Positions 24,649 to 62,609 of a DNA stretch of 64,000 nucleotides are shown here, piece by piece. A program made the translations under genes and the position numbers. The DNA is from an uncultured delta proteobacterium (GTDB lineage Bacteria; Desulfobacterota; Desulfobacteria; Desulfobacterales; JAHEIW01), in assembly GCA_963706575.1 (NCBI GenBank), contig CAVPNL010000003.1:224001-288000 (forward strand). The letters are read 5' to 3'. The notes under the pieces were generated by a model, which was not told the origin of the DNA, made no database searches, and saw nothing but the letters and a program-made list of their open reading frames with translations. Position 1 is the stretch's first letter. Each line of letters begins with the position of its first letter.

Positions 24649-25110
24649 TTATTGAACGACAAACTCGGTAAAAAAGATATTGGTAACCACATTATTACCG
24701 AACAGACTGTTGAGCTTGGCAAGAATTTCATCTCGCAAAGCAATCTTGCCTTCCATGCCGGCAATCTCATCAAATTGCTTGGAGGGCAGTATCATCAAGA
24801 TGCTGTCTCTGACCTGGGGCAGCCTTTCAGTTAGTTTTCCAGCATCCGCTGAATTAGCCAGCTCAAGATCCATGGTCACTCTCAAATAACGGCTGCGTCC
24901 CGCATCCGCGAGATTGACAATAAAAGTGTCCAGAGAATAAAGCGGCCCCAGTGCCGCGGCCTGAGCCTTCCCGGTCTCTGAGGTGCCCACCATATTGGCC
25001 TGGATGCTTAAAGCCGACAGCTTGTGCCACATCATAAAAAACCCGGCTGCCAGGCCAATCGTCAAGACCATTAAAACCGCTACAACCAGAAATATTAATT
25101 TATTTGACAT
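24649..25110 (-). CDS. fliL: basal-body associated protein
   Basis: TFIVNLAD...YL; PQVRD; FFTEFVVQ. Confidence 0.95.
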   Translation of the reverse strand: MSNKLIFLVVAVLMVLTIGLAAGFFMMWHKLSALSIQANMVGTSETGKAQAAALGPLYSLDTFIVNLADAGRSRYLRVTMDLELANSADAGKLTERLPQVRDSILMILPSKQFDEIAGMEGKIALRDEILAKLNSLFGNNVVTNIFFTEFVVQ

Positions 25111-25853
25111 TTTCCTCTTTGCCCTCCGTTAATAAAAAAATTTCAACCCGCCTGTTTTTCGCCCGATTGGGCCGGGTGTCATTCGCGGCCACCGGCCTCG
25201 ATTCACCATAGCCTACGGCCGAAAGCCTTTTGGGATCTATGTTGCTGACCTCGGCAAAGTACTTTACGACATTTACGGCGCGGGCGACGGACAGTTCCCA
25301 GTTTGACGGGAAGCGGCGTGTCTGGATGGGAACATTATCCGTATGGCCTTCCACCCGCACCGCATACGGTATTTTGTCCAGCGCATCTGCAATCTTATCC
25401 AAAAAGACGAAACCCGCCGGGTTAATCGCCGCTCTGCCAAAATTAAAAAGCACCTGATCCTCAAAAGAAAGTCGGGTTCCCTGATGGGTATGTGTGACCT
25501 GAATATCCGGATCGGCTTCCGTCAGTTGCCGAATCTGGTCAACCAATTTGCCGCCGGGCTGGCTGCTGCCTTGCTTATTTTGCTCGCCTTCAGCCTGGGT
25601 CATGATATGCGACATATCTTCAACCGGTTGGGTTTTTGTCACGCTGATGGATACTTTATTACCGGCTTCCAAAACTCCGAGCCCACTTTGCAGGGCATAC
25701 TGAAAATCCTGCCATTTTTCTAGTATCAACCGTGCTCATCGTAAACAGGAGAACAAAGAACACCATCAGCAGGGTGACAAGATCATTAAAAGTTGTCAGC
25801 CAGATGGACTTTTTACTGCCTTCGTTTTCCAGGTTGCGCCGCAGTCTTCTCAA
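25100..25853 (-). CDS. motB: stator B subunit 2 (MotS/PomB-like, Asp present), +1 frameshift near 25716
   Basis: WLTTFNDLVTLLMVFFVLL TM helix; OmpA-like VEGHTDN...NWELSVARA...NRRVEI. An extra A in an A-run splits the ORF. Confidence 0.9.
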
Positions 25854-26594
25854 AAGATTTCCTCGATGGGCGTTTTCGGTTGTTCTTTCTTAATGAAAAT
25901 AATCTCGACTCTTCGGTTTTTCTCCCGGTTTTCCGCTGTATCATTTGCAACCACCGGATGAAATTCACTGAATCCTTCCGCTGCCAGGCGCCGGGGATCA
26001 ACGTTGTGTTCTTTGATAAAATATCTGAGCACATTTACCGCCCGGGCAGTGGACAGTTCCCAGTTCGACGGATAGCGCTCGGTATGAATCGGAAGATTAT
26101 CGGTATGGCCTTCAATCCGAATCAGGTAGGCGGTTTTTGAAATAATGGCACCCACCTTTTGAAGCAGCGGAAGGGCCTCGGCCGCTATATCGGCCGAACC
26201 CAGTCCAAAGAGCATGTGTTCGGACATCCGCATGACGAGGCCTTCGCGCGTCAGCACAAGGTTAATCTCCTTCTCCAGGTTAAACTCGTAGGCAAGTTCT
26301 TCGAGTGTCTGAAATATTTTGGCCAGTTCCGATTTAGTATCGACCATGTCTGTCGAGTCTGATACAACGGCCAGGCCCGGTTCTAATTTCGTTCCACGCG
26401 GCATAATACTCACCGCTGTGACAAAGGACTTCACAAATTGCATGACTTTGGCTTCTTCCATAGTCGAAAAAGAGCTGAGCATAATAAAAAAGCAAAGCAG
26501 GATGAGGACAAACCCGGAGTAAACGATCTCCCATTTACTAGCCGGTGGAATCTTCTGATTTTTTGGCTCCGGATCTTTGCTTTTTTTTACGCAT
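25850..26594 (-). CDS. motB: stator B subunit 1 (conserved Asp replaced by Gly), +1 frameshift in the first ~20 codons
   Basis: WEIVYSGFVLILLCFFIML TM helix; IEGHTDN...NWELSTARA...NRRVEI. ATG at 26594 is out of frame by one base. Confidence 0.85.
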
Positions 26595-26727
26595 TGGCTG
26601 CCGAAAAATTAACGGTTAATTTATTTTTTCCTACCACATTCAAAGGGTTGCATGAATTGGCATCACTGACGCATTTCCGGCCCCAATCAGAGCAGGACGG
26701 CGGAAGGTTGTCCGGCCCTGAGTCCGA

Positions 26728-27508
26728 TCAGGCCTTGGCCGGTTGGGCATCGGCCGTCATGCGGGCCTTGGGCGCAATAAAGGCTTTTAGCTTTTGCTCC
26801 ACCACCCGATGATTATCGCCGGATTGAATCGAAATAACCCCTTCCAGAATCATCTGTTTGACCAGGACCTCCTGTTTGCTGCGTGTTTTTAGCTTACCGG
26901 CGACCGGCAGGAACAGCAGGTTGGCCAGCAGGGTACCATAAAAGGTCGTCAGTAAGGCCACCGCCATGGGCGCTCCGATCTGGCTGGGATCTTCCATCTG
27001 CATCAGCATTTGCACCAGGCCGATAATGGTTCCCAGCATCCCGATCGCCGGTGCAAAACCGCCCATGGTGGCAAATATCTCGGACCCCAGTCGGTGCCGC
27101 ATTTCCAGGTATTCAATTTCAATCGACATGACTTCTTCGATCGAAGAGGATTCCATACCGTCGATGGCCATCTGAATGCCCCGGGCCAGGAAACGGGTCT
27201 TTGATGTCCTTGAGCTGGGACTCAAATGAAAGGATGCCTTCCTGCCGGGCCTTTTTGGCAAAACCCGACATCAACGGAATCAATTCGCTCGGAATCTGGG
27301 AACGGTGCATAAACACGTTTTTGGCAACCTTGAACACGCCGAGCACTTCTGAAAGTGGATAGGCCAAAAGGGTTGCTCCCATGGTTCCACCCAGGACGAT
27401 CATGACGGATGGATAATTGATAAACCAGGTCCCATCACCACCCATCAAGATGGAAATGAAGACCAGACCAAATGAAACCAAAATACCGATTAAGGTAGTG
27501 ATATCCAC
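26728..27508 (-). CDS. motA: stator A subunit (PomA/MotP-like), +1 frameshift near 27192
   Basis: MDITTLIG; ARQEGILSFE; APAIGMLGTIIGL; MAVALLTTFYG. Confidence 0.92.
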
Positions 27509-28056: not shown

Positions 28057-28278
28057 TTACGCAAAATCCGCCGGCTGGCAATCTTCACGGACGGAATTTG
28101 AATAAATCGTGCGCTGATAGTCGACAATTCTCTGAGAGACCTCTTCAAGGGGCTCTTTCACCATAATTTTATCATTATTGGTGAAGGTGATCACCGTCTC
28201 GGGAATGGCCTGCAAGGACTGGATCATATCCACGTTGATCATCAGGGTTGAGTCATTTAGGCGGGTAACTTTTATCAT
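28057..28278 (-). CDS. flbD: FlbD/SwrD-family flagellar protein
   Basis: MIKVTRLN...INVDMIQ...PETVIT...VKE; located between flgE and motA. Confidence 0.85.
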   Translation of the reverse strand: MIKVTRLNDSTLMINVDMIQSLQAIPETVITFTNNDKIMVKEPLEEVSQRIVDYQRTIYSNSVREDCQPADFA

Positions 28279-28395: not shown

Positions 28396-29656
28396 TTAGC
28401 GTTTCAGGTTAATCAGTTCATTGAGAATCTCATCACTGGTGGTAATTACCCGTGAATTGGCCTGAAATGCCCGCTGGGTGGTAATCATTTTAATAAACTC
28501 CGCGGCCAGATCCACGTTGGACATTTCTATCGCGCTGGTGCTGACACTGCCCAGGCGACCGCTTTGCGGTGTACCGAAAAGCGCCGGGCCGGATTCCAGA
28601 GACTCGGAATACAGATTCTTGCCCATTTTGGTCAACCCGTAATAGCTGGGGAAATCGGCCATCACCAGCTGAAAAAGGGGCGTCAGCTGGCCGTTGGAAT
28701 AAGAGCCGGTCACGACCCCCTCTTCATTGACGTCCACCGTCCGCAGGGTGCCGGAAGGATAACCGTTCTGGGTCTGAAAGGTCGTGCCGGAGGGGGATGA
28801 ATACTGGGTGAGGCTGCCGTTACTGGCCCCAGCGGCATCAATCACATCCCAGTTAATGCTCATGGGTGCGGCGCCGTTGATCAACGAAGCTATATCGATA
28901 ACGGGATCAGCGGCAGGGGGGCCGGTTAAATTTCCAAAGGCATCAAACACAAAGGTGGCGCCGCCGCCCCCTATGCTGACGTCTCCCGGCAGAGCCACAG
29001 TGGGTGGAACACTAGGCAGCAACGGTCCAGGTGTTTACAGCGGGAGCAGCACTTTTGGTAAAGGTCAGGGTCAGGGGGATGGTATTGCCCAGCGAATCGT
29101 AAACCGTTGTGGTCGTGGCATAGGTGCCCAGATCGGCTGTAGCCGAATCCAGATTGACATCAACGGAAAGTGAATCGGTAGCAACCGGCGGAGAGGCACC
29201 CTGTGCGGAAGCATTGATATTGGTAACGGCGCCCAGAATCAGCGACCCGTCGGGGTTGGTACCGGTGACTTCATAACCCTGTACGTACAGACCGGACATA
29301 TTCACCAGATCCCCGTTGCGGTCGAAGGTAAATTCACCGGCGCGGGTGTAATAGTTTGCGCCGGTATCATCCTGAACGACGAAAAAACCACTGCCGTTGA
29401 TGGCCATGTCCGTGGGGTTGTTGGTATTTTCAATGGTCCCCTGGGTCCACATCGGTGTGGTCCCCTGGAACTGGACCCCGCGGCCGACATCACTGGATAC
29501 GCTGCCGGCCAGCGAACTGCTCAAAATATTGGCAAACGAAGACCGGTTTGATTTAAAGCCCGTGGTGTTGACGTTGGAAATGTTATCGCCCAGCACTGTC
29601 ATTGAAGTTGAATTGACATTTAAGCCGACCATGCCGGCAAACAATGAACCAATCAT
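28396..29656 (-). CDS. flgE: hook protein, +1 frameshift near 29013
   Basis: GDNISNVNTTGFKS; YYTRAGEF; EMSNVDLAAEFIKMITTQRAFQANSR. The two ORFs join at WTVAA/SVPP. Confidence 0.93.
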
Positions 29657-45953: not shown

Positions 45954-46106
45954 CAACATCGTAGCCGAAAAAAATATGGTCTGAAAGGAGGCGGGGTGAG
46001 TACTTCGAGACCAGATACGGCAACCACGAACGAAGAATTTAGCGGTATTTTAATAACCCGATTGGCAGAAACGCCAAAATAAACACCTAGGAAAGGAAAC
46101 CTTATC

Positions 46107-46959
46107 ATGGCACTAAGTACAATAAGCTTAACTCCCGGCATGCGGGCCAATCTATTCAGCCTGCAGCAAACGTCCAAGGATTTTGAGATTGTCCAGAAAC
46201 GTTTATCCACCGGCCTGAGAATCAACAGCGCCCTGGATGATCCCATCAACTTTTTCACCGCTCAGGAACACCGGTTGCGGGCAAGTGACCTGGCGGCACG
46301 CAAAGACGGCATGTCTGAAGCCATTCAGACAATCAAAGCCGGCAACGTCGGTGTTGAAAACATCAACAGCCTGATTGCCCAGGCCAAATCGCTGGCTCAA
46401 TCGGCCCTGTCCGCCACATCAACGGATGCCATAACTTTTCGCAGTCAGTATAATACGGTTCTGAACCAGATCAGCCAGATGGCGGCGGATTCCGGTTACA
46501 AGGGCATCAACCTGCTTCAAAGTGCCGAACTAACAATCGAGTTCGCATCAGAAGCTGGCAAATCGACTTTGAAGCTGACCGGTTTCGGAGACACATCTAC
46601 AACTTTCAATATTAATGGTTTGGATACTGAAATGAGCGCTATGGGTTCTGCTTGGATTTCCGGTACGACAATTGATGCGACCGAATATTCAAAATTCCAT
46701 CGACAATCTTGAAACAGCGCGGGGCGAGCTCAGAGTTAGAAGTAAAACGCTGTCCAGCAGTCTGTCAATCATTACGGCGCGCGAAGAGTTCACTGCGCAG
46801 ATGATTAATACGCTGGGCGACGGTGCCTCCAAGCTGACGGAAGCCGATATGAATGAGGAAGGCGCCAACATGCTGATGCTGCAAACGCGTCAGGCACTGG
46901 GTACAACCTCATTAAGTCTGGCCTCTCAGGCAGCTCAAGGGGTTTTGAGACTGTTCTAA
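46107..46959 (+). CDS. fliC: flagellin, Alphaproteobacteria-like type (~283 aa), +1 frameshift near 46683
   Basis: RLSTGLRINSALDDPINFFTA; DSGYKGINLL; C-terminal ADMNEEGANMLMLQTRQALG...VLRLF. Confidence 0.92.
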
Positions 46960-48050: not shown

Positions 48051-50507
48051 TTAAACTTCAAACACTTCGATCTGCGTCGGCGCCCTGCCCTCCAAAAATA
48101 TCCGCCACATCTCGCTGTAACCGAGCTCCAGGTTCCTTACAAAACGAGCTGTATCGAAAAGCGGCTTTTTCAGGTGATTGATGTGGAGCTTTTGCCGAAC
48201 GGCATTTAGCTCGGATGGATGTGATGCCAGCTGAACCGCCAGTTTCTCATATTCTTCAAGACAATCAGCGACCAATTCCGGTAGTCCGACGGCACGCAAT
48301 AAACTGGATGACACCCGCGACGCAAAATGACTGCCCTCTATGGTAATCACCGGCACACCGGCCCACAATGAATCGCTGGTGGTCGTGTGGCCGTTGACAA
48401 TCCGGGTGTCCAGAGCCAGATCCGCCCATTTCAGACGTGACAGATGTTGCGCTTTTTCTATCTTCTGTGCAAACACCAGTCGATCAGGGTCGACGCCTCT
48501 ATTGGCGGCCTCCCGGCGCAGATTGCGCCTGGCATTCCGGTTCTCATCAAAAAGCCATAATACGCTGCCGGGAACCTGCTGCAATATCCGCATCCAGCTG
48601 TCAAACAAGACAGGATCAATTTTGTAAGGGAGATTGAACGAGCTGAACACAAAACCTTTATCCGGCAAACCCAGTGCTTTCCGAGTCCAATCCCGAGCTG
48701 CAATTTCCTGTTGATCGTCATTGACCTGATAACAGTGGGGCAAAAAGACCAGTTTTTCATTGTAATAAGGCGCATGGTCCTCAGGGGTAACAATCCTGTC
48801 GGTGATCATATAATCAATGAAATCGGCACCGGTGGTGCCCGGATAACCCAGGTAGTGGACTTGAATGGGAGCCGGGCGACAGGCCAAAATGCCCAGCCTG
48901 GCACCTTTGGTGTGCCCTTTGAGGTCAACTAAAATGTCGACCTCTTCCTCGTAAATGCGTTTGGCCGTATCAATATGAGAGCGTTCACGAATGTCAAAGA
49001 ATTGGTCGCTTTCTTCTATAATCTGATTTCGATAGTGACTGTTATCTTTCGGGCCATAAGAGTAACAATGAACTTCGAATTTTTCCCGGTTATGGAGGCC
49101 GAAAAGACTCCGCATCAAATGAGCAGTGGCATGATCATGAAAATCGCAGGAAAGATAGCCGATTGTAAGCTTAGGCTTTTTTTGTCGTCTGGTTTCAAAT
49201 GCAAAAGGCAGTTTTACGTTTTGTAGTGGTTGTTCAATTTTGCGGCTCCATGTTTTTGCTACGGTCAAATTCATTGCCGGGTCGGAATTTGTTGCCATGC
49301 AAATAAACGGCGGTTGGATGATGGATTGCCCATTATCCGTTGCACGCCGAATCAAAAGATCCAGTTTTTCTGAAAAGCAAGACATTAGGTGCCAGTCGCA
49401 AGTGTGCTGTACCTGATGAATGAGATAACTGTATGCTTCAGCGTAATCGGGGTTGATCGCAATGGCTTTTTGAAAGCAGTCAATTGCTTCATCGCGCCGG
49501 CCCTCTTCGGCTAATACGACGCCCATATAGTTGTATGCCTCGGCAAACTGCGGATTTAGCTGAGTGGCTTTTTGAAAACATCCGATCGCTCCAGCCGTAT
49601 GCTCGGCTTCAGCATAGGTGACTCCTAAATTTAAATACGCTGTGGCGTTTGCAGGGCGGATTTGCAAAGCCTTCTGATAGCAGTCAATTGCCTTACTGAA
49701 ATCACCCTGGTCTTTAAATGTGTTACCCAGGTTAATATGGGCTTCATCGAGCTCTGGTTTTAGTTGAATGGCCTTTTGGCAGTAGAAAATCGCATCGTCT
49801 ATGAAACCCAGCTGTTTTGACAAATTGCCCAGGTTATTGTGGGCTTCGGCCCAGTCCGGTTTGAATTGAATGCAGTGCTTCAAGCAGGTAATGGCTTCGT
49901 CAAAGCGGTCTTTCTTTTCCAAAATATTGGCCTGGTTGTAAAACGCTTCAACCAGCATGGGGTTTAAAGAGGTTGCCTGCCGGTAGCAGGAAACGGCCTC
50001 ATCGAAAAGTCGCTGTTCTTTGAGGGTATTCCCTAAATTATAGTATGCTTCAGCGCTGTTCGGTTTAAGCGCAATCGCTTTTTGATAGGCAGAAGCGGCC
50101 CGGTCAAGGTCGGCCAATTGATGATAGGCAATGCCCATATTGATATAAGTTTCAACGAGATCGGGTTTGATTTGAAGCGCTTTTTGATAGCAGGCAATGG
50201 CCTGCTCGCAGCGGTCGCTATCGCGGTAGGCATTGCCCAGGTTGTTGTGGAAAATGGGTTGATCGGGGACGATTTGAATGGCCCGGCTGATTAAATCAAT
50301 AGCCGCTAAGTTGTCTTGCATCTGATTTAAAAGCACGCCCAATAGATGCAAGGCGTTCGCATTCTCGGGCATAACATCCAGTATCTCTCTGTAATTCTTT
50401 TCGGCCAGTTCCAAATCACCTTGCTGGTGATAATGTAACCCGCGTTCCAGAATTGAGGTCAGATGTGTGGCTGAAGCTTTTTTTGAATGATCCGATCTAA
50501 AATTCAC
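48051..50507 (-). CDS. TPR + GT41 O-GlcNAc transferase-like protein
   Basis: About 10 TPRs, then IGYLSCDFHDHAT, DILVDLKGHT, PAPIQVHYLGYPGTTG, FNLPYKI, GHTTTSDSLWAGVP. Confidence 0.92.
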   Translation of the reverse strand: MNFRSDHSKKASATHLTSILERGLHYHQQGDLELAEKNYREILDVMPENANALHLLGVLLNQMQDNLAAIDLISRAIQIVPDQPIFHNNLGNAYRDSDRCEQAIACYQKALQIKPDLVETYINMGIAYHQLADLDRAASAYQKAIALKPNSAEAYYNLGNTLKEQRLFDEAVSCYRQATSLNPMLVEAFYNQANILEKKDRFDEAITCLKHCIQFKPDWAEAHNNLGNLSKQLGFIDDAIFYCQKAIQLKPELDEAHINLGNTFKDQGDFSKAIDCYQKALQIRPANATAYLNLGVTYAEAEHTAGAIGCFQKATQLNPQFAEAYNYMGVVLAEEGRRDEAIDCFQKAIAINPDYAEAYSYLIHQVQHTCDWHLMSCFSEKLDLLIRRATDNGQSIIQPPFICMATNSDPAMNLTVAKTWSRKIEQPLQNVKLPFAFETRRQKKPKLTIGYLSCDFHDHATAHLMRSLFGLHNREKFEVHCYSYGPKDNSHYRNQIIEESDQFFDIRERSHIDTAKRIYEEEVDILVDLKGHTKGARLGILACRPAPIQVHYLGYPGTTGADFIDYMITDRIVTPEDHAPYYNEKLVFLPHCYQVNDDQQEIAARDWTRKALGLPDKGFVFSSFNLPYKIDPVLFDSWMRILQQVPGSVLWLFDENRNARRNLRREAANRGVDPDRLVFAQKIEKAQHLSRLKWADLALDTRIVNGHTTTSDSLWAGVPVITIEGSHFASRVSSSLLRAVGLPELVADCLEEYEKLAVQLASHPSELNAVRQKLHINHLKKPLFDTARFVRNLELGYSEMWRIFLEGRAPTQIEVFEV

Positions 50508-50564
50508 TTTTCATGATTTTCACGGACACGAGACAATCGTGACCGAACTTTTATCTGAAAATAT

Positions 50565-53500
50565 CTATTGGGGTAAATTTTCAAATTTAATCGGCTGTCG
50601 ATCCGTTAGCCCTGTTGGCGGGATTTCCGATAATTGTTGGGCCATGTCGTTCATTTGAATGCATTCGGTGAATAAGTCCAAAATCCCTTTATTAATGATA
50701 TCGCATTCAATCGCAGCCCCGAGCACCCGCATGGCATATTCCACTTTTTTAGCCGCCAGGAGGCTCTGTGCGAGTTCAAGGCACGGAATTTCAAGGTGAG
50801 AGCCCAAAGGAGTATTTTTTAATTTTCGGATGCCATCAAGTCCCTTTTCTTTCGGACCTGCACAGCAGTATGCAGCCGATAGAATAAACTGAGCCGGCGG
50901 GTAATCTGGAAAACTGTTCAACAGGCCCTCGAGAATGCTGATGGTTTTGGGTGCATCGCCGCACTGCAACTCAGCCAGTGCTTGGTTGTATTGCGCTTCT
51001 TTCAGATCCGGGTCGTACTCCACGGCCTTTTTGCCTGCATTAAGGGCGTCTTCAAATATACCAAGCCGATTATAAATGTTTCCCATATTCACATAGGCAT
51101 TTGCAGCCAGCTTCGGATTTGGATTAAGGGCAAGCAGTCTTTGCCACAACTCAAGAGCTTGCTCGTTTTTCTCCAGAACGGTTGCTTGTATCGCCAATTC
51201 CCATAGGGCACGAATATCCTCACCCATCTCGGATAACTTTTTCAGGCCGATATCAAAATAGGTTTCCCCTTTGCGCCCCAGTTTTTCTTGATCCAGCCGG
51301 CCGTAATGGTGTACCGGAATACGGCATTTTTTGGTTTCGATACCATTTCTTTTCAAAAGCGGATCGACCATCTCATGCACCGCCCCTTCAAACCGGATCT
51401 GATCCTTGCCGTAAAACAGCCTTACTTTTTCACTGGGCAGCCACCCGAAAGTCGCTTCTTCATCAGGATATTGTCCATCATTGGGCACCCACCCTACAAT
51501 ATTGGGCACTTTGCTATAGTTTCGGGTGGTAATGGAGTATGCGATCGGCGCCCGGGGTATCTTTTTCACAAGTCTATTAAAATCCGCATGGTCCAGGTGA
51601 GAAATCACCTCATCGCCGTCCAGAATTAAAATCCACTCAGCGGATGCTTTTGATATCGAATAGTTGCGCGCTGCGGCAAAATCATCTCTCCACTCATAAT
51701 CATAGACTTGGGCCCCAAAAGTAATGGCAATATCTTTGGATCGATCCGTGGAACCGGTATCAACGACAATCATTTCATCAACAATCGGCTTTACACTGGC
51801 CAGACATCTGGCGAGATACGTTTCTTCATCTTTAATAATCATGCACAAAGAGACAGGCGCCTTCTTCGAGGATTTGTTAAGGGTCATTGCCCCCAGTTTC
51901 TCTCTGACCTTCAGCGCGGCGCCCAGGATGCCATCCGCAATACCGAATTTGATAATTGCATCTTCAATTTCAAGCATCGCCACCTCATATTTGCCCTGCC
52001 GGATGAGAGAATCGATCAGTATATATTTTATTTTCTGGTTGTTCGGGTACAGCTGCGCCGCCTGACGTGCAACGTCTTCAGTCTTTTCAAAATCACCGAG
52101 CCCTTCGATAAAAGCATGATAATTGGTTGCAATATCTAAATCCGTCGGTGACAGGATGAAACCTTTTTCAAAAAACTTTAGGGCCTCTTCAGGTTGCTTT
52201 GTCTCCAGCTGTAACATGCCTAAATTTGTGTAAGGCTCTCCATACCCCCGATCAGACGTGATTGCTCGTTTGAAGTATTTTTCAGCAGAATCGTGGTCAT
52301 TGTTGCGGTAGGCCAGAATGCCTTTGAGGTTCAAGCCCCGCGCATGGGCGGGATCCATTGCAAGCACCTGTTCAACGCTGGCCCTTGCCGCCTCATAATT
52401 TTCCAGACCTTCTTCCGTATATCCTGAAAGTAAAACTTTTTTTATTTCCGGGTTGCCGTTTTCCGAGGGCATCTCATTTAAAACATCCTTTGCATCCTGA
52501 AATCTTTTTGCAGCCACTAAGATCTCTGCAAGCTCAAGGTAAAGACGCTTTTCTTCAGGTTGAACCCTTATTGCATTCAACAATATCTCTACCGCCTGAT
52601 CAATTTGGCCTTTCTGACTTAATTCATTTGCGTTCGATATATATTGTACGGTCTGTAATGCTTTGGCTTCCGGGTTTTGAGTGCCATTCCATGTTTCATT
52701 ATATTTCTTTCGGTCTTCGCCGGCCGATTTTTCCGTTGAAGCGTTCTTTTTGACTTTGTGCCGATCGTAATGAAAAACATATGTATCAGCGGCAATCAAA
52801 TTCTGATAGCCCCCTGCGACCGACCGGTTGCAAAAGTCTTCGACAATCATTTCTTCTGAAGCAAACTGTTCATCAAAATATCCGATTGTATCGGGTAAAT
52901 CTCGCCGGAAAGCCAGACAAAAACCGGCGAGTTTTCGGGTTGCCACCCGTCTATATTGGTTTTGTTCACGAAACGCTTCTGCAGTGGATTCGAACTCAAG
53001 CCGATCGGAATCGTCAGGATGCATCAGTTGCTGAATGCCTGCTGCCCGATTGGACATGGGGCCCACGACACCGATATTCGGCTCAAGTTTGAAACACATT
53101 TTAAACGCTTTAAGCCAACCTTCCGGTACCGCCACATCATTGTGCATCAAAACAATAATCTCGCCGGCGGCTTTCTGGATCGCCTGATTGAGAGATTCAG
53201 CCCGGCCCTCCGGTCCGGCACACTCAATAATGTGGTAACGGTCGTTATCATTTATAAGTTGTTGCGCCCATTTGAGCATGCCTTTCGTTGACCCGCGATC
53301 GATAAGCAACAACTCGTAAGGATCTGCCGTGTGCGCCTGAATGCTTTTTACGCATTCTTTTACGCGATTTTGGATCCCGTCGAGGCTGATTACAATTGAT
53401 GCGGTTGTTTTGCGGTCAATATCCTGGTTTTCAGATTCTCCTGAATTGATATCCGTTGATTCAATTTTCGCACTTGAAACGCTCACATCGATTAAAGAAT

Positions 53501-56500
53501 CTACGCTCGCTGATGGCGGCTCAATTTGCCGGCTATTCAGGGCCTGAAGATTTTTGCCGGCATCTTCATTGTCCGGCGCCAACGATAGAACCCGTTCATA
53601 AAAACCTTTAGCATCGTCAAACTTTTTGAGCGCCACGCATATGTGACCGGTAATCAGCAGCGTCTCTACATCATCGGGGTGTGTTGCCAGGATGTTCACA
53701 TAAATTTGAAGGGCCTCTTCTACCTTTCCCTGTTCTACGAACAAAAAGTCCGCCTGGTTTTTTTGAAAGTTAATATTATCGGGCATTAATTCAACGGCAC
53801 GTCCATAATGATGCCGGGCTTTTTCTTTGTCACCCGTATGATAATGAAGCACGCCCAGATCATTGTGCGCCAGAGCAAAGCCCGGATAGGTTTGCAGCAA
53901 TTCTTCTAATAGTGAGATCGCTTTGTGCGGATCTCCGTTATTTAATAACGGCTGAATCTCCCGATACAGTTCTTCGGGCGATTTAAGTTCTGGTGTAATC
54001 GGGTTCATTTTGTCCAATTTATTCAGATTGCTTTGGGCAGCTTCATTCTGCGGTTCAAGCTCCAATATGCGTTGATAAAACACTTTGGCATCCTCAAACT
54101 GATGCAATGCCAACGCAAATATGACCGGTGATCAGCAACGTTTCGACATCCTGTGGATCGAGTTCCAAAATTTTAACATAGATTTGCAGGGCCTCTTCGA
54201 CCCTGCCCATTTCAACAACGTAAAAATCGGCCAGATTCTTTTGAAACACCATGTTCTCTGGATCCAGTTGAACGGCTTTTTCATAAAATTGCTGCGCTTT
54301 TTCTTTGTTGCCGGCTTGATAGTGCAAAACGCCCAAATCGTTGTGCGCCAGCGCAAATTGAGGGTAAGATTCTGCCAGCATTTCAAGCTCATTGATCAAT
54401 TGCTCGGGTGTCTTATTTTGCATTGATTGCTGGATCGCTTGATAGATCTCCTGCGGTGTTTTCATGGCTTGAGCCGCCTGACTGTCTGATGGATCGGCAA
54501 ACCGGCGCAGCGGTCTGTCTTTTAAGGTTGTTAAACGCTGCAAAATAAGATCTGTTGACATTTCCCAATCCACTTTTGTCTTAATTTGATTCGCTGCAAT
54601 CAGGCCCCTGTGTTTTGCTTGCTCGGGACGTTCATATACCTGCTTTAATAATTGGATCAAATGAGCCTTGTCGGGCTCCAATAACCAACCGGGTGCTCTT
54701 AAAACATGTCCGTTCAGTTGAACTGATCTTTTGGTGCTGTCGATAAAAAATGCGGTTTCTTCAGAGCAGAAATCGTCACAGGCCCCGCCTTTGGTGACAA
54801 TAACCGGCAACCCGCAGGCCATGGCCTCGGCCACCGGCAGTCCAAACCCCTCCCCGCGATAAGGGTGCACCAGACAATCACAGGCCGTGTATAGGCCGGC
54901 AATTTCCTCATGTTTAAGTGTTTCGGTCAGGTATAAAATTTCCGGCGCGGCCGGATCCTTCTGGATATCTTCAATCATCTGCGCGGCATTTTGTCCCTTG
55001 TAAAAGGACTCCCCCCCCATGTCCTTGATCACAAGGCAAACATCATCTTCGCTGGTAAAGGCCTCTGCATAGGCGCTCAGCAAAATATCTATGCCTTTGC
55101 GCATGATGGTGCCGCCGACAAATAAAAATTTGAACTTTTTATTTGTAGTAACTGGGAGTTTTGCTATTTCCGGATGGAATTGGTTATAATTTACACCGTT
55201 AGGAACAACGAATACCTTATCCGATGATATTCCACTGTTTATGTAAACATCACGAACATAATTGCTCGGCACCCAGAGTTCATCGACCAGGGTTTCCATG
55301 GGCTCTACCCAATCCTTTGGCAGAGCACCGAATTCCCAGGGTTGAATGATAATCCAGTGACCCTCGGGCGGGGGGGTGAAATTGGGCGGCCACTGGTGCC
55401 GCACACAAAAATCAGCCGCACCTGATAGCGGTTTTCGCAGTCGCTCTTCGATCAGGCCGAATCGTTCGGGATCTTCTTCCGGGCCAAACTCATGCGGTTC
55501 ATAGGGAATAAGGGAAAGTTCAATGTCATGACGTCCGGCCAGTTGGACACACAGCTCTCTATTTACCAGAGCCAGACTGTGATTGACGAACTGAGAGCCC
55601 TCCCATTTAACCACTATTTTTTTATTTTTGGCCTTATCGATAAATCTTCCACTATCATCGAAATAATCGCCCCAGCGAGCGAAAAAGGTTTGCAAATTTT
55701 CTTTTACATGATCGAATCGACCCTCTGTTCTTCCTTCATAGTGATATAAGGTACTTTTGGGGTTATAAATAACCTTAAAGCCTTTTGATCTGACTTTCAG
55801 ACACAGATCAATATCTTCGACTCCGTTTTTGTATTGCTCGTCAAAACCGGCACATTCGAAAAACAAATCCCTTTTAATTAACAGGCATGCGCCGGTCACC
55901 ATGTCCAGTTCTTTAAGTTCATTGGCCTCAGGATGGTCGCCCGGTAAATTTCTAAAGGGATGATCCGGTATACCGTTTATAAAACCAATTCCTGCGTGTT
56001 GTATTGTATCGTCAGGATAAAGTAGCTTGCTTCCAACGATCCCCACATCGTCATCGGAATCTGCGGAACCGACCATTTCTTCGAGCCAGCCTTCCTGCGG
56101 CAAGGTATCATTATTCAAAAAAACAAGGTGATGCCCACGACCAAGTCTGGCTCCCTGGTTACAGGCCTTGGCAAATCCCAGATTCTCTTTGTTTGTTATC
56201 ACTTTAACCTTTTCGGGGATGCCGGATAGATATTCCCTGGTTCCATCTGTGGAATTATTATCTATAACGATAACTTCAAAAGAGGAGTTTGTTGAATTCT
56301 TATATAGGGCTTCAATACATCGCTTGGTGTAATCTAGCTGGTTAAAGACCGGGATAATTATCGAACACAACTTGGTTTGTTTGGTATTGATTTTTGAATA
56401 GCGTTTTTGATAATTCGATTGTATATGCAGGACTTCTAAATCCGGTAAAATGCCTTTTCTGCTGATGGCATCATCCGTTATCCATTGAAGGCCTGTAAAT

Positions 56501-58482
56501 TCAGTAATATGTTCTATATTGAATTTTTCACCAATACGTAACCAAAATTCTTGATCCCCATCGGCGATGTAGCGTTCGTCAAAAAATCCAATTTGCGGAT
56601 GCAGTTGTTTTCGCCACATGGGATGGGGTCCCACTAGACAAGTATTCAAGTGGTTTTGAAAGGAGTACGGTGGCCATCTATAGGCGTCAGTATGGGTATT
56701 GTTTTCAAAACTTTCATGCGGTGTTTTTGTAAGATAGGTATCACCGTATACAAGCATGCAGTCAGGATTTTCGTCTAGATATCGGGCTAAAATCTCACAC
56801 GCTTCCTGGTTGAGGATATCATTCGTACTTGCGCTTATGCAGTACCTTCCAGAAGCCTCCCTTATAGCGATATTCCAGGCCGTATATATCCCAATACGAC
56901 CCTTTGTTTTGATGTAAGTAATATTTGAGTATCGCTTCTGAAATTCTTGAACAATTGTTTCTTCATTCTGAGGAGAATGGGCGTCAACAACTACGATTTC
57001 CAAATTTTTACTGATCGTCTGGGACTCTAAGTTCTCCAAACATTCGCGAATAAATTCTTCGGAATTATAGGTAGATACAATAGCGGAAACAATATAGTCT
57101 TTTTTCTCGGCTTTGACTTTTTTGATAATTTGCTTGTCTTTTTCAGTATCTTGCAATTTTTCCCAGTTTTTCGTTATTTGATCATCTTCAGGATTTCGCA
57201 TAAGGTAATAAAGATATATTTCCCTGGCTTTATTGACCTCTCCTGATAATTCAATTTTTTCTCCAAGTTTCAAAAATACATCTCTTACATCGATGTTTTT
57301 AGGGGCAATTTCCAGTGCTTTTTGGCAAAAAATAATGGCGTCATCAATTTTTTCTAAATCCATTGAAATAAGGCCCAGAACCAAAAGAGCTTCCAAATCT
57401 TCAGGATTTTTTCTTATTATATTAAGATATTTTTCAAGTATTTGTTCACGTTTATCAGGTTTATCATAATACGCTGCAAGGTCTTTTCGAAAGTTATGGC
57501 CTTTAGTATAAAGACCTTCCCCTTCTTTGTCTGGAGCCTTGTTCTTTTCAAAATCGATTTGCTTGTTGTTGCCTAATCTTCTCTGTGAATCCAATTTTTG
57601 CTTTAGCTCTTGAAAATCGTATCCCATTTTTGAGACAATATCTGGACCTAATGTCTCTAGATACTGATCGGCAAATCCAACAAGCTCTGGAGACGAAATG
57701 TTTTTTAACCACTTGTCGATATTGTGGGTTACTGGCCGGCTATGTTGATAAATACCAACCGGGTCACCAAATCTCCCTATTGGTTTTGGTTTATCGCCAT
57801 AAGTCAGCATTTCTGGTCGAAAGGAAATTCCAAGTTTGTTGCAAATTGCTCTTACAGAATTTTCTGAATACTCAACCAATTCCTCATATTTTACAACAAT
57901 GGCATCTCTTGCCAATAGTTGCATTCCCTTGACTAAGTTGGACGGACCCTGGAGGATATCTAAATAATTTGGACTTTTTTTGAGGGTTTCTGGATTGTTT
58001 TGAAACCATGTTTTTAAGGTAGATGAAAGTACAGCCAGCGGATTTCTTAAAAGAAAAATGAATTTGGCTTCAGGAAAAACCTTTTTGAGTTCAGGAATGA
58101 TCAAATGATACCTTGGGGTTTTATCCAAGAATAATCGTTTACCCGATACCTCAAGTGCACGGTTATACAGGGTCGAGCCCATATGTCTCAAAGCCTTATA
58201 ATACAGTTCCTGACCTTCGGGCACCTGTGAAAGAAAATCTTCTAATCCTTGCCTGGCTAGATTGGAATCGAATTCTGCTAGTAAACCGTTATTTTTTAAT
58301 GCATAAATCGGATAAAGCATAATCCAAGGTTCTGCAATGGTGTGAATGTCCGAGTGCCCACTTAATATTCGCTGCAAAAGGGTGGAACCGGCTCGCGGTT
58401 GTGAAATCAGAAAAATAAGGTTTTGGCCAAACATATCCATCTCCGATGTATTTTCCTGCTTTGAAGGGTTAACGTTTTGCAT
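50565..58482 (-). CDS. giant multidomain sulfotransferase/TPR/glycosyltransferase (~2,640 aa), +1 frameshift near 54112
   Basis: Sulfotransferase (PRAGSTLLQR, DKTPRY); TPR; GT2 (IVSTYN); GT2 (IIIPVFNQ, FLNNDT); GT4 (RKGID, EGFGLPVAEAMACG); TPRs; GT2-like; TPRs; GT2 (SLCMIIKDE, LDGDE); TPRs. The junction LLITGHICV/ALHQFEDAK matches an internal duplicate LLITGHICVALKKFDDAK. Confidence 0.8.
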
Positions 58483-59345
58483 AACTTGGTGAATTCGATC
58501 GAATTTGCCTGAATTTATAGTTGGACTTGACTATTCTATCATCCAACTCTACATCACCATTAATCTCAAACTCGGATCTTGTCCCATAAATCCACGTCGA
58601 ACTTGTTGGTTTGAACACAGTGTATTCCGCTACCATCATGACCAATATTCTTTACTAATGACTTTCTTGGGTAGATAGTATATTTTTCATTCAAAAACTG
58701 ATAGTAGAAAATCTTTACATCAAGTGCATCCATTTTGCCGGCTGCATCCAACAAAATCATATTTAGTAAATCTTCACCATATTTTGATAATTCTTCAACT
58801 TCTTTATTATTTGAGAATCTTTTCAGAACTTCAGCATTATCTAAATAAGAAATCTTCTTAAATCGGTCATGCCAGATACCCATGCCCCAGGCACAAGCTC
58901 TTCGCAGTAAATAAATTTCAGGAATATAGTCAGCAGGAATACTTATTGGTGGAGAGTATCCGGAAATGCTAAATATTTTCTCATCTTTCTCATAAAAATT
59001 TAACGATTCATTCATGAATTTGAGAAAACCGGGGGCTGTAACAATGTCTTCTTCCAAGTATATGCACTTCCCATAATTTTCAAGAAGTTCAAAAATTCCA
59101 TCCCGATTATTTCGTATTCTACTATTTTGCGTCTTTTTAAAGACATGCACATTTTTGAAACCATTGATTGTATCTACATACTTCCTGATTGCATCTACCT
59201 TTTTTTCGTCGCCTGGTTTTGCTCCATCTGAAAATATATATAAATCACTTTCTTTCGCCAATGTATTAGCTTTTAGAGCTTTTATGGTTTGTTTTAGGTG
59301 TAGCAATCTTGAATATGTTGATAATCCTATTGGGGCTAAGCTCAA
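58469..59345 (-). CDS. GT-A fold sugar transferase, +1 frameshift near 58573
   Basis: LAPIGLSTYSR...FSDGAK...LEEDI...SISGY...NIGHDGSGIH. The repaired C-terminus ends at 58469. Confidence 0.8.
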
Positions 59346-59491
59346 AATGCTCTCCTTCTAAAAGTTAAAAATGGATGCATAACTTGACCGATCCGTAGAT
59401 TAAATTTTTCTAAAAGTCATTTGATTTCCCGCCCAATTACTTGATCAAGAACGGCTTAAAAATAAAACGCGGACTTCGCTTGTTACAATCT

Positions 59492-60483
59492 CTATGATGT
59501 TTGTATGCATGACAACGCCTTCTTTGCTTCGGCTTCGTTGAATTCATCATCAAAATTCAAGCTTGGCTTAAAATAAGTTGGGCCGGTATATGCCTTATTT
59601 GTGTTGTACCCAAGCAATTGTAATCGGGAGAGTATCTCGTGGTACTGTCGTTGCAGGATCTTTACAGAATTTTTCATATGATATAACGATGCTGTGTTCG
59701 GGCTGAATTCTATGAAGCGTTTTTTCGATATGTTTGTTGGTGTAATAGACTTGACCTGCTAGTTGCATATAAACATTTTTGGTTTTCAATGTTTCGTATT
59801 CAGGTGGTTTGAACGAATACCATTTACTAAGATCATTAAAAAATATTTTGCGCGTTTTAAATAACGATGCCATATTGTGTACAGCGTTTCTTTTGATCAA
59901 TAGGAACAAAGGCTTTTGCAATATATGATTTAAATAATCAATATTCCAATTCATAATAAGTGCTTTGAGTAATAGCGGTTTTTCAAAACAACTTTCTATC
60001 GCGGCTAATTCTTTAAGGAACAATTCATGATTAACTTCTGCCAGTTTCGCTTTGCTCAGCGACTGGATTTTGCCGAAATGGAAGAATCTACGCCAAAAAT
60101 ACCAAAATTCGTGAGGTGAGTGAGCACCCTTTGTTTTGCCCAGCCGGGACGTGAAGTCAAACTGCTTGTTACCGTACAGTTCTCCGTGCTTATCAAAATC
60201 AACGAATATTTTGTGGAGCAATCCCCCGATATACGGGGCATTGTAAAAGCGAGACATAATATTGCTGGGATATGCAAACAAGCCTGTAGCAGCTAACCAT
60301 TGATATAGCAAGTGTTGTTCCGCTACGGGGGTTTCCAACAATAAACACAGCAGGTAGTTTGGGCTGGGTCAGGTTAGAAACCTCATGGAGCTCTGGCTCT
60401 TCAAACAAGCAGTTGACTTTGTCGAGCAGATCTTCTAAAGCTTTCGCACGTTTATGCGTGTCCGTTCGCAAGTCGTTATCCAT
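59492..60483 (-). CDS. sulfotransferase family protein, two +1 frameshifts (~60315, ~59650)
   Basis: FIVGNPRSGTTL 5'-PAPS-binding loop; PHEFWYFW; ISYEKFCKDP. Confidence 0.8.
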
Positions 60484-61455
60484 TACATTCCTTAATAACA
60501 GAAACAATACGATGCATATCGCGTCGACCATACCGTTGGTCAATGGGAAGCGGTATCAAGTGTTCTACCAGATACGATTCAAAAACGTTCGAACCATTAC
60601 CCATTTCAGATATTTGTGGCCAATATGTGGGGGTAAAAATATTATTTTCTTGCAAGCGTTCTCTGAGGTGTTTATTATCGCAGAGATATGGATACATCAT
60701 GGGACCAGTGATTGTGCCGCCATCAATCATAGGGGAAAGTTGGTTGAACTTATGCAGAGCCTTGTGTAGCTCATTGAAATTTTTATTTCTCTTGCTGCGG
60801 ACCCATTCATAATCAATGTTTAATAATATTTTCTTTGTTAAGCGTGACATGCCGGCCATAGATCGATTGTCGAATTCTTGCTCATGGGATCTGAAGTCAG
60901 AAAAACCTTCCGAGGCTCCAAGTTCAATTCTTTTTAACAGATGCAAGCATCGCTCATAAGAAGCCTGGTCTTGTGGCAGGGATAGAGTCGAGTCCTCTGT
61001 TTGCATAAGCAAAACCACCATCAGGGACGCCAAAAAATTTTCTCGGCGAATAAAAGGTTGGTGCGTGGCTGCAGGGTAAATTAAAAAAGGCCTGGGCATT
61101 GTCTATAATAGTATTGGTATATTTCTGTGCCAACTTCTTAGCCGTTTCATTTTTAAGGCCAAAATAATTAATATACAATATATACTCATCACTACCGACC
61201 GTGAAGTTTTGATCCGGTTCAAGATCCTCATTGATAGAATAAAAATGCATAGTCTATCTGTAGTTTTTGAAGCGGCTGAAGCATTACGGGACATATATAC
61301 AATGGTATGTATACCTTTTTCACCGCAAGGCTTTCTAAGATATATGCGAACGCATTTCTCCCGCTATTAAGAGCTGCGGCGTTGTCATGAAAAAGGCTAT
61401 CGTATTGACGCAACTCTAACTCAAAATAACCACCTATTGGCTGTGTGCTGCTCAT
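60476..61455 (-). CDS. PLP-dependent aminotransferase-like (DegT-related) protein, two +1 frameshifts (~61245, ~60980)
   Basis: IGGYFELE; NSGRNAF; INYFGLK; IDNAQAFF; FYSPRKFFGVPDGG; LPIDQRY. Confidence 0.75.
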
Positions 61456-61462
61456 GGATTAC

Positions 61463-62609
61463 TCAACTAAAATTAAAAGTAAGCTTCAGAGAAACTTCCT
61501 TTAGAGAACCTTCTTCTAACGAAACCTCAAAACTGTCATCATCGTAAAGAGTGGGACGGTTGAGTTTGTGAACTAATTTGTTTTTTTCAAGAAAGGATAT
61601 AATAATTTTTATAACGATCTTTGTAAGTTTTTTTGAAGTTGGAGAAATCAACTTCGTCAAATATCTGCCCAATTGACTTTTTTTGTATATCCTCAATTGA
61701 AACTGTCGGGATATTGTAAAAATCAGCTATTTCCATCATTCGCAAATCGCGCGGCACAAGTACTGCCGGAACTCCCTGGATTAGTGCAGCAATGCATCCA
61801 TGCAGTCGCGCGCCAATCACAAAGTCATGTGCTCCTATAATGTCAAACCACAATTTGTACCGGTTCGGGAAAATTCCGTTTCTATTAATTGTCGTCAAAA
61901 CAGTTTTGTAATCGTAAAATTGTAGATACTGAGACATCTCCTGCTTGTGCAGCAAATCATCATTGTTGCGATTATTGGTAAATATAACCTCATCCAAAAA
62001 ATCCTGACCGAGAATTGTTGCCGATTTCATAGCCTCAAGAGCATATGCGGACATTGTCCGGTGATAGGCAATCAGTGGTTTAGTCATCGACTTATTTTTG
62101 TGTATGTGAATATTGTCCTTGAGTTGCCATTGTAATGAAGGACATCCGACGGGGATAATATTGTCAAAACCATGTTTTTGCAGTATTGATGCGGTGTGCG
62201 GACCCCGTACGCCTATTGCTTCTGAACGTTCTGAAACAAGATGTAGCAATCTGATTACTGAAGGATGCAATTCCACGATATCATTTGCTGCTGCAATATA
62301 ATCCTCCATACCGAGGGACAGGGCTATTGTTTTCATGTCCAGTTTTTCAACAACATCTGCTAGATAGGAAATATCCCGTTTTCTGTGGATGTGCGTTGAA
62401 AGCGCAAGCACGCACACATCGTATTTATTTCGCAAGGAAGATATGTCAGAAAAATCATCAATGTAGTCCGCATCAAACTGACGCAACAATGCTTGGCAAA
62501 TAAAAGATGCACCATGATTGCTTGCGTAATACGTATTATTTGACTTCCATTTTTCGAATGAGCCCGGATAGTTGTATTCAGGGCTTAGCCCAATAATCAT
62601 TGTTTTCAT
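61463..62609 (-). CDS. polysaccharide pyruvyl transferase-family protein, +1 frameshift near 61600
   Basis: IGVRGPHT; GCPS; GARLHGCIAALIQGVPA; DLRMMEIADF. Confidence 0.75.

Follow-up and report, generated by a model that had tools for sequence, protein, structure and literature searches.

The window analysed here is a stretch of 64,000 nucleotides from the genome of an uncultured delta proteobacterium of the Desulfobacterales (contig CAVPNL010000003.1, positions 224,001 to 288,000). It carries a flagellar operon in which a single motA gene, encoding the A subunit of the flagellar stator, is followed by two unlike genes for the B subunit. The second of them, motB2, encodes the ion-binding aspartate (Asp) of the transmembrane (TM) helix while the first, motB1, does not. 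MotB1 belongs to a family of Asp-less MotB proteins that is real, old and conserved and that was not found in print. Judging from its residues, it would be a B subunit of a non-conducting type.

A flagellar operon with a single motA and a pair of motB genes

The list of open reading frames and the Pfam matches give the gene order flbD, motA, motB1, motB2, fliL and fliM, on the minus strand like all features of the operon given below. The flagellar cluster around the mot genes is complete and includes a FliI-type ATPase, FliG, FliF, FlhA, FlgI and FlgK (Pfam). The motA gene (26728 to 27508) is matched by MotA_N and MotA_ExbB on two frames. Its product is PomA-like and of sodium type by sequence, with a threonine in TM3 (GT, 27028 to 27030, equivalent to T158 of PomA) and a pair of threonines in TM4 (LLTT, 26944 to 26949, equivalent to T185 and T186).

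The product of motB1 (25850 to 26594) passes the Pfam cut-off of MotB_plug (42.1 bits vs 24) and also matches OmpA (64.8 bits), and an intact orthologue of 247 amino acids is encoded at locus L034 of a relative. Alignment and profile place its TM helix (columns 26-46 of E. coli MotB) at 26471 to 26533. The plug helix (columns 51-67), which bears the motif S-hydrophobic-x3-hydrophobic, lies at 26408 to 26458 and the OmpA-like wall-binding domain, with its GHTD, NWELSxxRA and NRRVE motifs, at 25913 to 26212. MotB1 is a MotB homologue, with single TM helix, plug and OmpA-like domain, but not a canonical ion-carrying member since the TM Asp is absent. The L034 orthologue does not reach the cut-off of the NCBIfam models for MotB, MotS or MotD (best score 159.8 bits vs 264), which says little because these models are lineage-specific. 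The nearest named relatives are genome bins of Desulfobacterales and Desulfobacteraceae, whose MotB1 share 68-89% identity with that of the window.

The motB2 gene (25100 to 25853) is likewise matched by MotB_plug and OmpA, on two frames, and has an intact orthologue of 250 amino acids at L034. The TM Asp, a plug region and an OmpA-like domain (25151 to 25450) are all present, the second half of the plug being atypical. Both OmpA-like domains pass the Pfam cut-offs, in agreement with the first-pass annotation, which had called them intact. The overlap that it reported between the two genes at 25850-25853 is also found in the sequence: the stop codon of motB1 (TGA, 25852-25850) overlaps the start codon of motB2 (TTG, 25853-25851) and a GAGGA lies 6 bases upstream (the whole arrangement spanning 25850 to 25864). 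The same overlap recurs at L034 (1560-1563), and the two genes are probably translationally coupled.

The spacer between motA and motB1 (26595-26727, 133 bases) is about 40 bases longer than that of locus L035, and the two genes abut in several other lineages. No clear ribosome-binding site was seen directly before the start of motB1. The operon context comprises flbD (swrD; 28057 to 28278, Pfam FlbD) upstream of the mot genes and fliL (24649 to 25110, Pfam FliL), which overlaps the stop of motB2, downstream.

Loss of the aspartate in MotB1 and its relatives

The absence of Asp from MotB1, its presence in MotB2 and the unlikelihood of a read error had all been proposed by the first-pass annotation, and each of these points holds. 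In the MotB1 helix, WEIVYSGFVLILLCFFIML, the codon at the Asp32 column is GGG (26513-26515), encoding glycine (Gly). In the MotB2 helix, WLTTFNDLVTLLMVFFVLL, the Asp is kept (GAT, 25782-25784). The helix register was set by the downstream half only, with a position profile that leaves out the Asp column and all that lies upstream, and it puts the Gly of MotB1 and the Asp of MotB2 in one column. The E. coli column numbers come from the alignment of the earlier annotation and from the peptide printed in 10.1101/2023.03.05.530362. None of the 120 best-listed MotB1 homologues, out of 426 found, has Asp at this column (110 G, 8 C, 1 S and 1 W), so the Gly is beyond chance or read error. Orthologues have G, C, S, A or N there, never D.

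Loci were collected from 60 relatives and from a 400-genome sample of the phylum. The phylum sample combined a search with a MotB1 profile (70 places, biased towards the Asp-less trait) and a MotA search, from which 90 of the 150 listed places were fetched, most of the others being already in the set. After merging loci that share the first 40 helix residues, 156 distinct loci remained. Of these, 64 carry an Asp-less/Asp pair, 16 an Asp/Asp pair and 60 a single MotB with Asp; in 2, an Asp-less copy lies at the end of the contig, and 14 have a motA without adjacent motB. Counted per motA in the phylum sample (n=124), 51 have an Asp-less/Asp pair, 4 an Asp/Asp pair, 52 a single MotB and 15 none, and in 2 cases an Asp-less copy lies at a contig end. 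Within the class, a second sample anchored on MotA yielded 69 loci, of which 6 from previously used genomes were skipped. The 63 counted comprise 58 Asp-less/Asp pairs, 1 Asp-less copy at a contig end, 3 single MotBs and 1 motA alone; these shares are not frequencies, since the loci are closer MotA matches chosen for family spread.

Altogether, 138 complete motB pairs were found in other genomes of the phylum. The first copy is Asp-less in 122 of them and both copies have Asp in the other 16; in no pair is the second copy, or both copies, Asp-less. The only Asp-less copies without a visible partner (3) are all at contig ends. The Asp-less first copy occurs in 42 family codes (22 in the first sample and 20 new ones in the second), and the Asp is present in all 77 second copies scored. 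In a library clustered at 50% identity, 124 of the 141 scorable proteins among the best 150 matches lack the Asp and 17 have it. Orthologues of MotB1 do not retain the Asp; had they kept it, the proposal of the first-pass annotation would have been refuted by its own criterion. No natural fusion of B1 and B2 was found among the three long or doubled matches inspected.

Pairs with Asp in both copies also occur apart from motA in three families, f81, f116 and f130, at about 15-17 kb where both are on one contig (L067, L069, L072, L077, L081, L083, L084, L086, L087 and L096 with L115, L119, L127, L128, L131, L139, L149 and L150). The genome of the window itself has a further MotA-MotB-like pair (L003, G000:C6:51398-54499) with the Asp present and a 331-codon open frame. 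It is on long branches distant from the flagellar types in both the MotB and the MotA tree and is probably not flagellar.

The loss is not limited to the Asp. Among 65 Asp-less copies, the substitutes are S (34), A (17), G (12), C (1) and N (1), and in the 58 Asp-less/Asp pairs of the second sample they are S (33), G (24) and A (1). Of the 65, 43 have no Trp26 and 61 no Thr29, and Thr35 is lost along with Asp32. By contrast, Phe40/Phe41 are retained in 63 of the 65 (per family, each in 21/21), as are the signature residues Ile36, Ala39 and Ile42. The helix has diverged freely in its cytoplasmic half while its periplasmic half and the plug are the best conserved part. By its residues, MotB1 is without the whole ion site (Trp26, Thr29, Asp32 and Thr35) and has kept the dimer core, the plug and the wall-binding domain. 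Small or polar substitutes, and the retention of Phe40/Phe41 while Trp26 and Thr29 are lost, indicate that its TM segment is a packing helix rather than a product of drift.

Columns 26-46 of the Asp-less copies contain no acidic residue except Glu27. This residue was considered as a shifted stand-in for Asp32 as it is present in 116 of 120 close homologues, but it is not a general substitute because only 15 of the 65 Asp-less copies carry it; it could matter in the window's own lineage. A division of labour in which one copy holds the ion site and the other binds the wall was also rejected as a general rule. The wall-binding Asp and Arg are present in both copies of 48 of 60 Asp-less pairs; MotB1 fails in 11 and MotB2 in 2. 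MotB1 keeps these two residues in 49 of 60 orthologues, the window's family included.

In family f98 (L092, L093, L097, L099 and L169), Asp-less first copies have a decayed wall-binding motif, while selection on helix and plug is strong, with a ratio of nonsynonymous to synonymous substitution (dN/dS) of 0.04. The first copy of L065 (f74) has Asn at the Asp column together with Trp26 and Thr29, a natural D-to-N intermediate that Asp-bearing relatives adjoin.

MotB1 is under purifying selection, as estimated from sequences. Across 12 operons of the window's family, dN/dS over helix and plug is 0.092 for MotB1 (dS being usable in 31 of 66 pairs) and 0.098 for MotB2 (in 42 of 66), and over the whole genes 0.144 and 0.179. 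Three different Gly codons occupy the Asp column within the operons of this family. In other families, the helix and plug of MotB1 give values of 0.04-0.39, those of MotB2 being similar. The comparison of tandem pairs among relatives, suggested by the first-pass annotation, has thus yielded a conserved loss of the Asp from the first copy.

A tree of the periplasmic parts (216 rows, FastTree) separates first and second copies into largely distinct groups with mirrored sub-branches, its deep forks being weak. The duplication of motB is therefore old. In L034, the two copies share 8 of 24 TM residues and 36% identity in the periplasmic part. In the MotA tree, the MotAs of paired operons fall in one branch (support 97) together with a few from single-MotB operons. 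Asp-bearing and Asp-less first copies interleave, and a single origin of the Asp-bearing ones is rejected by the approximately unbiased test (p 4e-35; run on a quick tree of 57 first copies, after 24 near-duplicate or long-branch rows had been excluded from the 81). Well-supported branches force at least three changes of state on these 57 rows. Since the Asp-bearing first copies do not form one clade, losses or regains of Asp have occurred several times in the first copy, the tree giving no direction, whereas the Asp of the second copy has never moved.

In L146 (f79) and L143 (f104), the helix of an Asp-bearing first copy matches that of its own second copy (19/24 and 24/24 residues), against about 30% identity between the periplasmic parts; the first copy of L146 nests among Asp-less ones. 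A recent gene conversion was discarded as origin of the Asp/Asp pairs, since synonymous sites show no trace of it (in L143, 9 of 21 codons are identical for 24/24 identical residues). An old conversion in these two loci, as perhaps in the Aquifex pair discussed below, is possible.

As assembled, none of motA, motB1 and motB2 is an intact open reading frame because each carries one extra base. That of motA is near 27189-27194 (by comparison with L034 and with contigs of the sequencing runs X1, X2, X3 and X15), that of motB1 near 26539-26542 (against L034; absent at 26540-26542 in X2 and X3) and that of motB2 near 25710-25712 (against L034; absent at 25712 in X2 and X3). L034 is 92.8% identical in DNA to the operon of the window, and the contigs of these runs come from near-identical organisms, relatives not shown to be the source of the assembly. 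The contigs of X15, an RNA run, cover parts of all three genes, a coverage that does not show transcription. The 5' frameshift noted earlier in motB1 is therefore really seen in the assembly, but it is not the only one.

A read error at the Gly codon or a decaying duplicate could be invoked from these shifts, which affect all three mot genes and could be real in this one strain. Such an explanation is scarcely credible. The extra bases are absent from the contigs of near-identical organisms, and frameshifts against the proteins of a relative (G004) affect 28 of 182 matched genes in patches of the assembly, with 20 of 35 genes on contig C2 and 5 of 47 in the window. The mot shifts are most likely assembly errors. 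Whatever their origin, the result at the family level is independent of it: intact, selected, Asp-less orthologues in 42 family codes refute the error or pseudogene reading there, and the decay of motB1, which the first-pass annotation had listed as a possible refutation, finds no echo in relatives.

The patch with the mot shifts also contains flgE (28396-29656, minus), split by a frameshift near 29012-29022. One shift each relative to G004 proteins is also found at 46086-46956 and 50568-54576, the latter in a large gene encoding tetratricopeptide repeats (TPR) and a glycosyltransferase. A run of very large TPR-glycosyltransferase genes lies beside the flagellar cluster (48051-62609, minus; GT41, GT2, GT1/4, sulfotransferase-like and pyruvyl transferase) and probably serves flagellar or surface glycosylation.

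A putative stator unit with a single ion site

The two B subunits also differ in their plugs. The second half of the canonical plug, S-hydrophobic-x3-hydrophobic, ends at the columns of M54, F58 and G59 of PomB, at a fixed offset from D24. This motif is present in 60 of 65 Asp-less MotB1, 2 of 77 MotB2 and 52 of 58 single MotBs, or, counting one operon per family, in 18/21, 1/21 and 31/35. Because it was first defined after seeing the data, a hold-out test was run in which the motif was fixed beforehand and scored on new genomes. It was found in 44 of 58 MotB1 vs 8 of 58 MotB2; counted over the 20 new families, 17 vs 3 have it. In a MotB dimer, the two plugs are reported to act in trans (PMC11940233), and those of PomAB to be crossed and in unequal sites (PMC10374538). 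As plugs act in trans, the plug of MotB1 would guard the conducting MotB2 side and that of MotB2 the dead side, so this reciprocal split fits a unit of five MotA, one MotB1 and one MotB2 with one ion site.

The preferred reading, with a probability of roughly 0.55, is such a MotA5-MotB1-MotB2 stator unit of sodium type, with one complete Na+ site and with MotB1 acting in packing, anchoring and gating. Five MotA would enclose one MotB1 and one MotB2 in place of two identical MotB. MotB2 would provide the sole complete ion site (Trp26, Thr29, Asp32 and Thr35), to which the MotA threonines would hand over Na+. MotB1 would be the non-conducting half of the axle, contributing helix core, wall anchor and canonical plug, and in a crossed arrangement its plug would gate the MotB2 side. 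The mixed unit would still turn, using one Asp per cycle. The one-way loss of the Asp, purifying selection, the small or polar substitutes and the reciprocal plug split are consistent with this heterodimer, as are the lone MotA of many genomes and a predicted interface. What the data show directly is limited to sequence features, conservation, selection and co-occurrence; the pairing of MotB1 and MotB2 in one MotA ring, the coupling ion and the torque of the mixed unit are inferred. A broader proposal, held at somewhat less than even odds, is that this would be a widespread natural 5:2 rotary motor with an obligate heterodimer as axle and a single ion-binding Asp, one subunit carrying the ion and the other acting as gate.

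MotA itself appears to be a normal sodium-type subunit. Three MotA threonines are tied to Na+ selectivity (PMC10374538) and, by this criterion, the hint of Na+ coupling given by the first-pass annotation gains support: the equivalents of T158, T185 and T186 are each present in 60/60 MotAs of Asp-less operons. The rotor-facing Arg is present in 60/60 and the Glu in 54/60. These invariant threonines, the prevalence of Ser among the substitutes and a Na+ site of PomAB made by PomA alone (PMC10374538) could also suggest that MotB1 passes Na+ without an Asp, by means of the MotA threonines and of a side chain that is small or bears a hydroxyl. It would do so either in a homodimer or in its own half of the heterodimer, both half-steps then being ion-driven. 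This is very unlikely. At the Asp column, 29 of the 65 and 25 of the 58 copies have Ala or Gly, which lack a hydroxyl; Thr29, a Na+-binding helper in PomB, is lost as well; and, besides the lack of acids in columns 26-46 apart from Glu27, no new compensating acidic residue was found in TM3 or TM4 of MotA among the columns listed.

The complex of MotB1 and MotB2 was predicted for the L034 pair, with a 60-row alignment for each. The score is 0.66 (best control 0.00), with a predicted local distance difference test of 71 for the partner and at least 20% of contacts agreeing between runs; the mark that it passes is reached by 116 of 157 solved pairs and by 2 of 215 mismatched pairs. Sequence matches exist to the solved structures 8ucs, 6ysf, 8bri and 6ysl, and the pass may stem from likeness because solved MotB/PomB dimers exist.

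All confident predicted contacts are between the OmpA-like domains. This would agree with a MotB1 located outside the MotA ring, where, tethered to the membrane, it would act as a wall anchor or help in assembly and would either pair with MotB2 by the periplasmic domain only or be part of FliL-type scaffolds. The free divergence of its cytoplasmic helix half and the wall-binding Asp and Arg kept in 49/60 would agree with this too. Nevertheless, such a location is rather improbable. The best conserved part of MotB1 is the periplasmic helix half and the plug (Phe40/Phe41 in 21/21 and plug Ser in 18/21 families), which pack in or on MotA in solved units, whereas the wall-binding motif itself has decayed in 11 of 60. 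Moreover, the interleaving of Asp-bearing and Asp-less first copies on the tree implies that first copies served as channel subunits either recently or on repeated occasions.

Several observations weigh against the one-site heterodimer. Two alternating Asp sites are required in current models (10.1101/2020.05.12.089201), both Asp are assumed to need protonation (10.1101/2023.03.05.530362) and Trp26, lost in most MotB1, is described as essential in E. coli MotB (10.1101/2020.05.12.089201). The complex score does not rank the heterodimer over a homodimer, and no heterodimer-specific charge pattern was found at the predicted interface. In family f57, dN/dS of MotB1 reaches 0.39 over TM and plug and 0.69 over the whole gene, MotB2 being about equal. 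As for the plug, the motif was post hoc at first and related operons are not independent. The score of the whole-plug profile does not separate the copies (MotB1 higher in 26 and lower in 34 of 60 pairs). MotB2 retains the first half of the plug and its final Gly, and its departure is mild in the window's lineage (Ala for Ser). Asp/Asp pairs show a like asymmetry, 14 of 16 first copies having the Ser.

The standard two-Asp mechanism is more easily reconciled with a brake or tuner, the other function envisaged by the first-pass annotation. In this case, MotB2 homodimers would work while units containing MotB1, inactive or slow, would hold stator slots or use up MotA, setting torque and ion cost. 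MotB1 keeps all that is needed for assembly, plugging and anchoring and nothing for conduction, and idle stators are retained in the Borrelia motor, by another protein (10.64898/2026.10.14.759253). A brake is nonetheless considered unlikely. The place of motB1 in the operon is fixed and the gene is coupled to motB2: in 62 of 64 operons, 18-104 bases separate its stop from the Trp codon of motB2. Nothing therefore points to a separate control. Random equal pairing would disable about three quarters of the units (by arithmetic), even where a single MotA match was found, as in 27 of the 53 phylum-sample genomes with an Asp-less copy (genomes 89-100% complete, at most 6 candidates scored in each). 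In the 16 Asp/Asp pairs, MotB1 cannot be a dead subunit, and yet both paralogues are maintained. The loss of the plug motif from MotB2 is also left unexplained. A brake is opposed chiefly by the fixed coupling, in what is the sole stator operon of many genomes, and by the maintenance of both paralogues in Asp/Asp pairs. Between the two functions initially proposed, the heterodimer gains indirect support from the split of ion site and plug and from the predicted interface, and the brake stays the less probable alternative.

MotB1 and MotB2 compared with known stators

To our knowledge, all current models of 5:2 ion motors (MotAB, PomAB, ExbBD and TolQR) involve two equivalent aspartates that alternate. 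With homodimeric B subunits, a single site is hard to remove alone. Natural one-site pairs beside related two-site pairs would allow a direct comparison of step size and torque, of the ions used per turn and of how plugs act in trans. If the one-site heterodimer is true, two alternating ion sites would be unnecessary for rotation, and step size or ions per turn would differ from models with 36-degree steps and one ion per step. If MotB1 were a brake or an anchor instead, a large group of sediment bacteria would have an undescribed regulator of the stator, encoded in the operon itself. In either case, the Asp-less family corrects the statement that the Asp of MotB is universally conserved (PMC10374538).

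No description of an Asp-less MotB was found in a search of an open-access library that lacks most subscription journals; the supplementary alignments of PMC12505986 and Fig. S2 in PMC4525482 may bear on the question. A phylogeny of stators counted only the gene directly downstream of motA as the B gene, and its main text does not contain the word aspartate (PMC12505986). The accessible texts of PMC9039648 and PMC9541039 do not treat an Asp-less MotB. In that of 10.64898/2026.10.14.759253, MotB1 and MotB2 are two chains of one protein and no Asp-less MotB appears.

The operon shares with canonical MotA5MotB2 and PomA5PomB2 stators the rotor-facing Arg and Glu of MotA, its three Na+-type threonines, B subunits made of one helix, plug, linker and OmpA-like domain, and the position in a flagellar operon. 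It differs from them by two unlike B genes per A gene, by a MotB1 devoid of Asp, Trp26, Thr29 and Thr35 and by a MotB2 mostly without the canonical plug motif.

In dual stators (MotAB/MotCD or MotAB/PomAB), there is also more than one type of B subunit per motor, but each B has its own A and its Asp (PMC9039648), whereas here one A is shared and one B is Asp-less. The AglR-AglQ/AglS system of Myxococcus likewise combines one A-type with two B-type paralogues, for which hetero- versus homodimer is an open question (PMC9389320). However, AglQ and AglS both have the conserved aspartate, are TolR-like and serve gliding rather than flagellar rotation (PMC9389320).

A matching layout is that of Aquifex aeolicus, whose motA-motB1-motB2 genes (a three-gene arrangement also given in PMC4987623) encode a Na+-driven stator with one MotA and two tandem MotBs, the periplasmic parts of which are 23% identical (PMC4525482). 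That layout is found here, but not the near-identical TM regions: the N-terminal and TM regions of the Aquifex copies are 97% identical, each copy being functional alone as a chimera in E. coli (PMC4525482), compared with 8 of 24 TM residues in L034. The Aquifex pair, for which the accessible text reports neither an Asp-less copy nor a heterodimer (PMC4525482), resembles instead the 16 Asp/Asp pairs found here.

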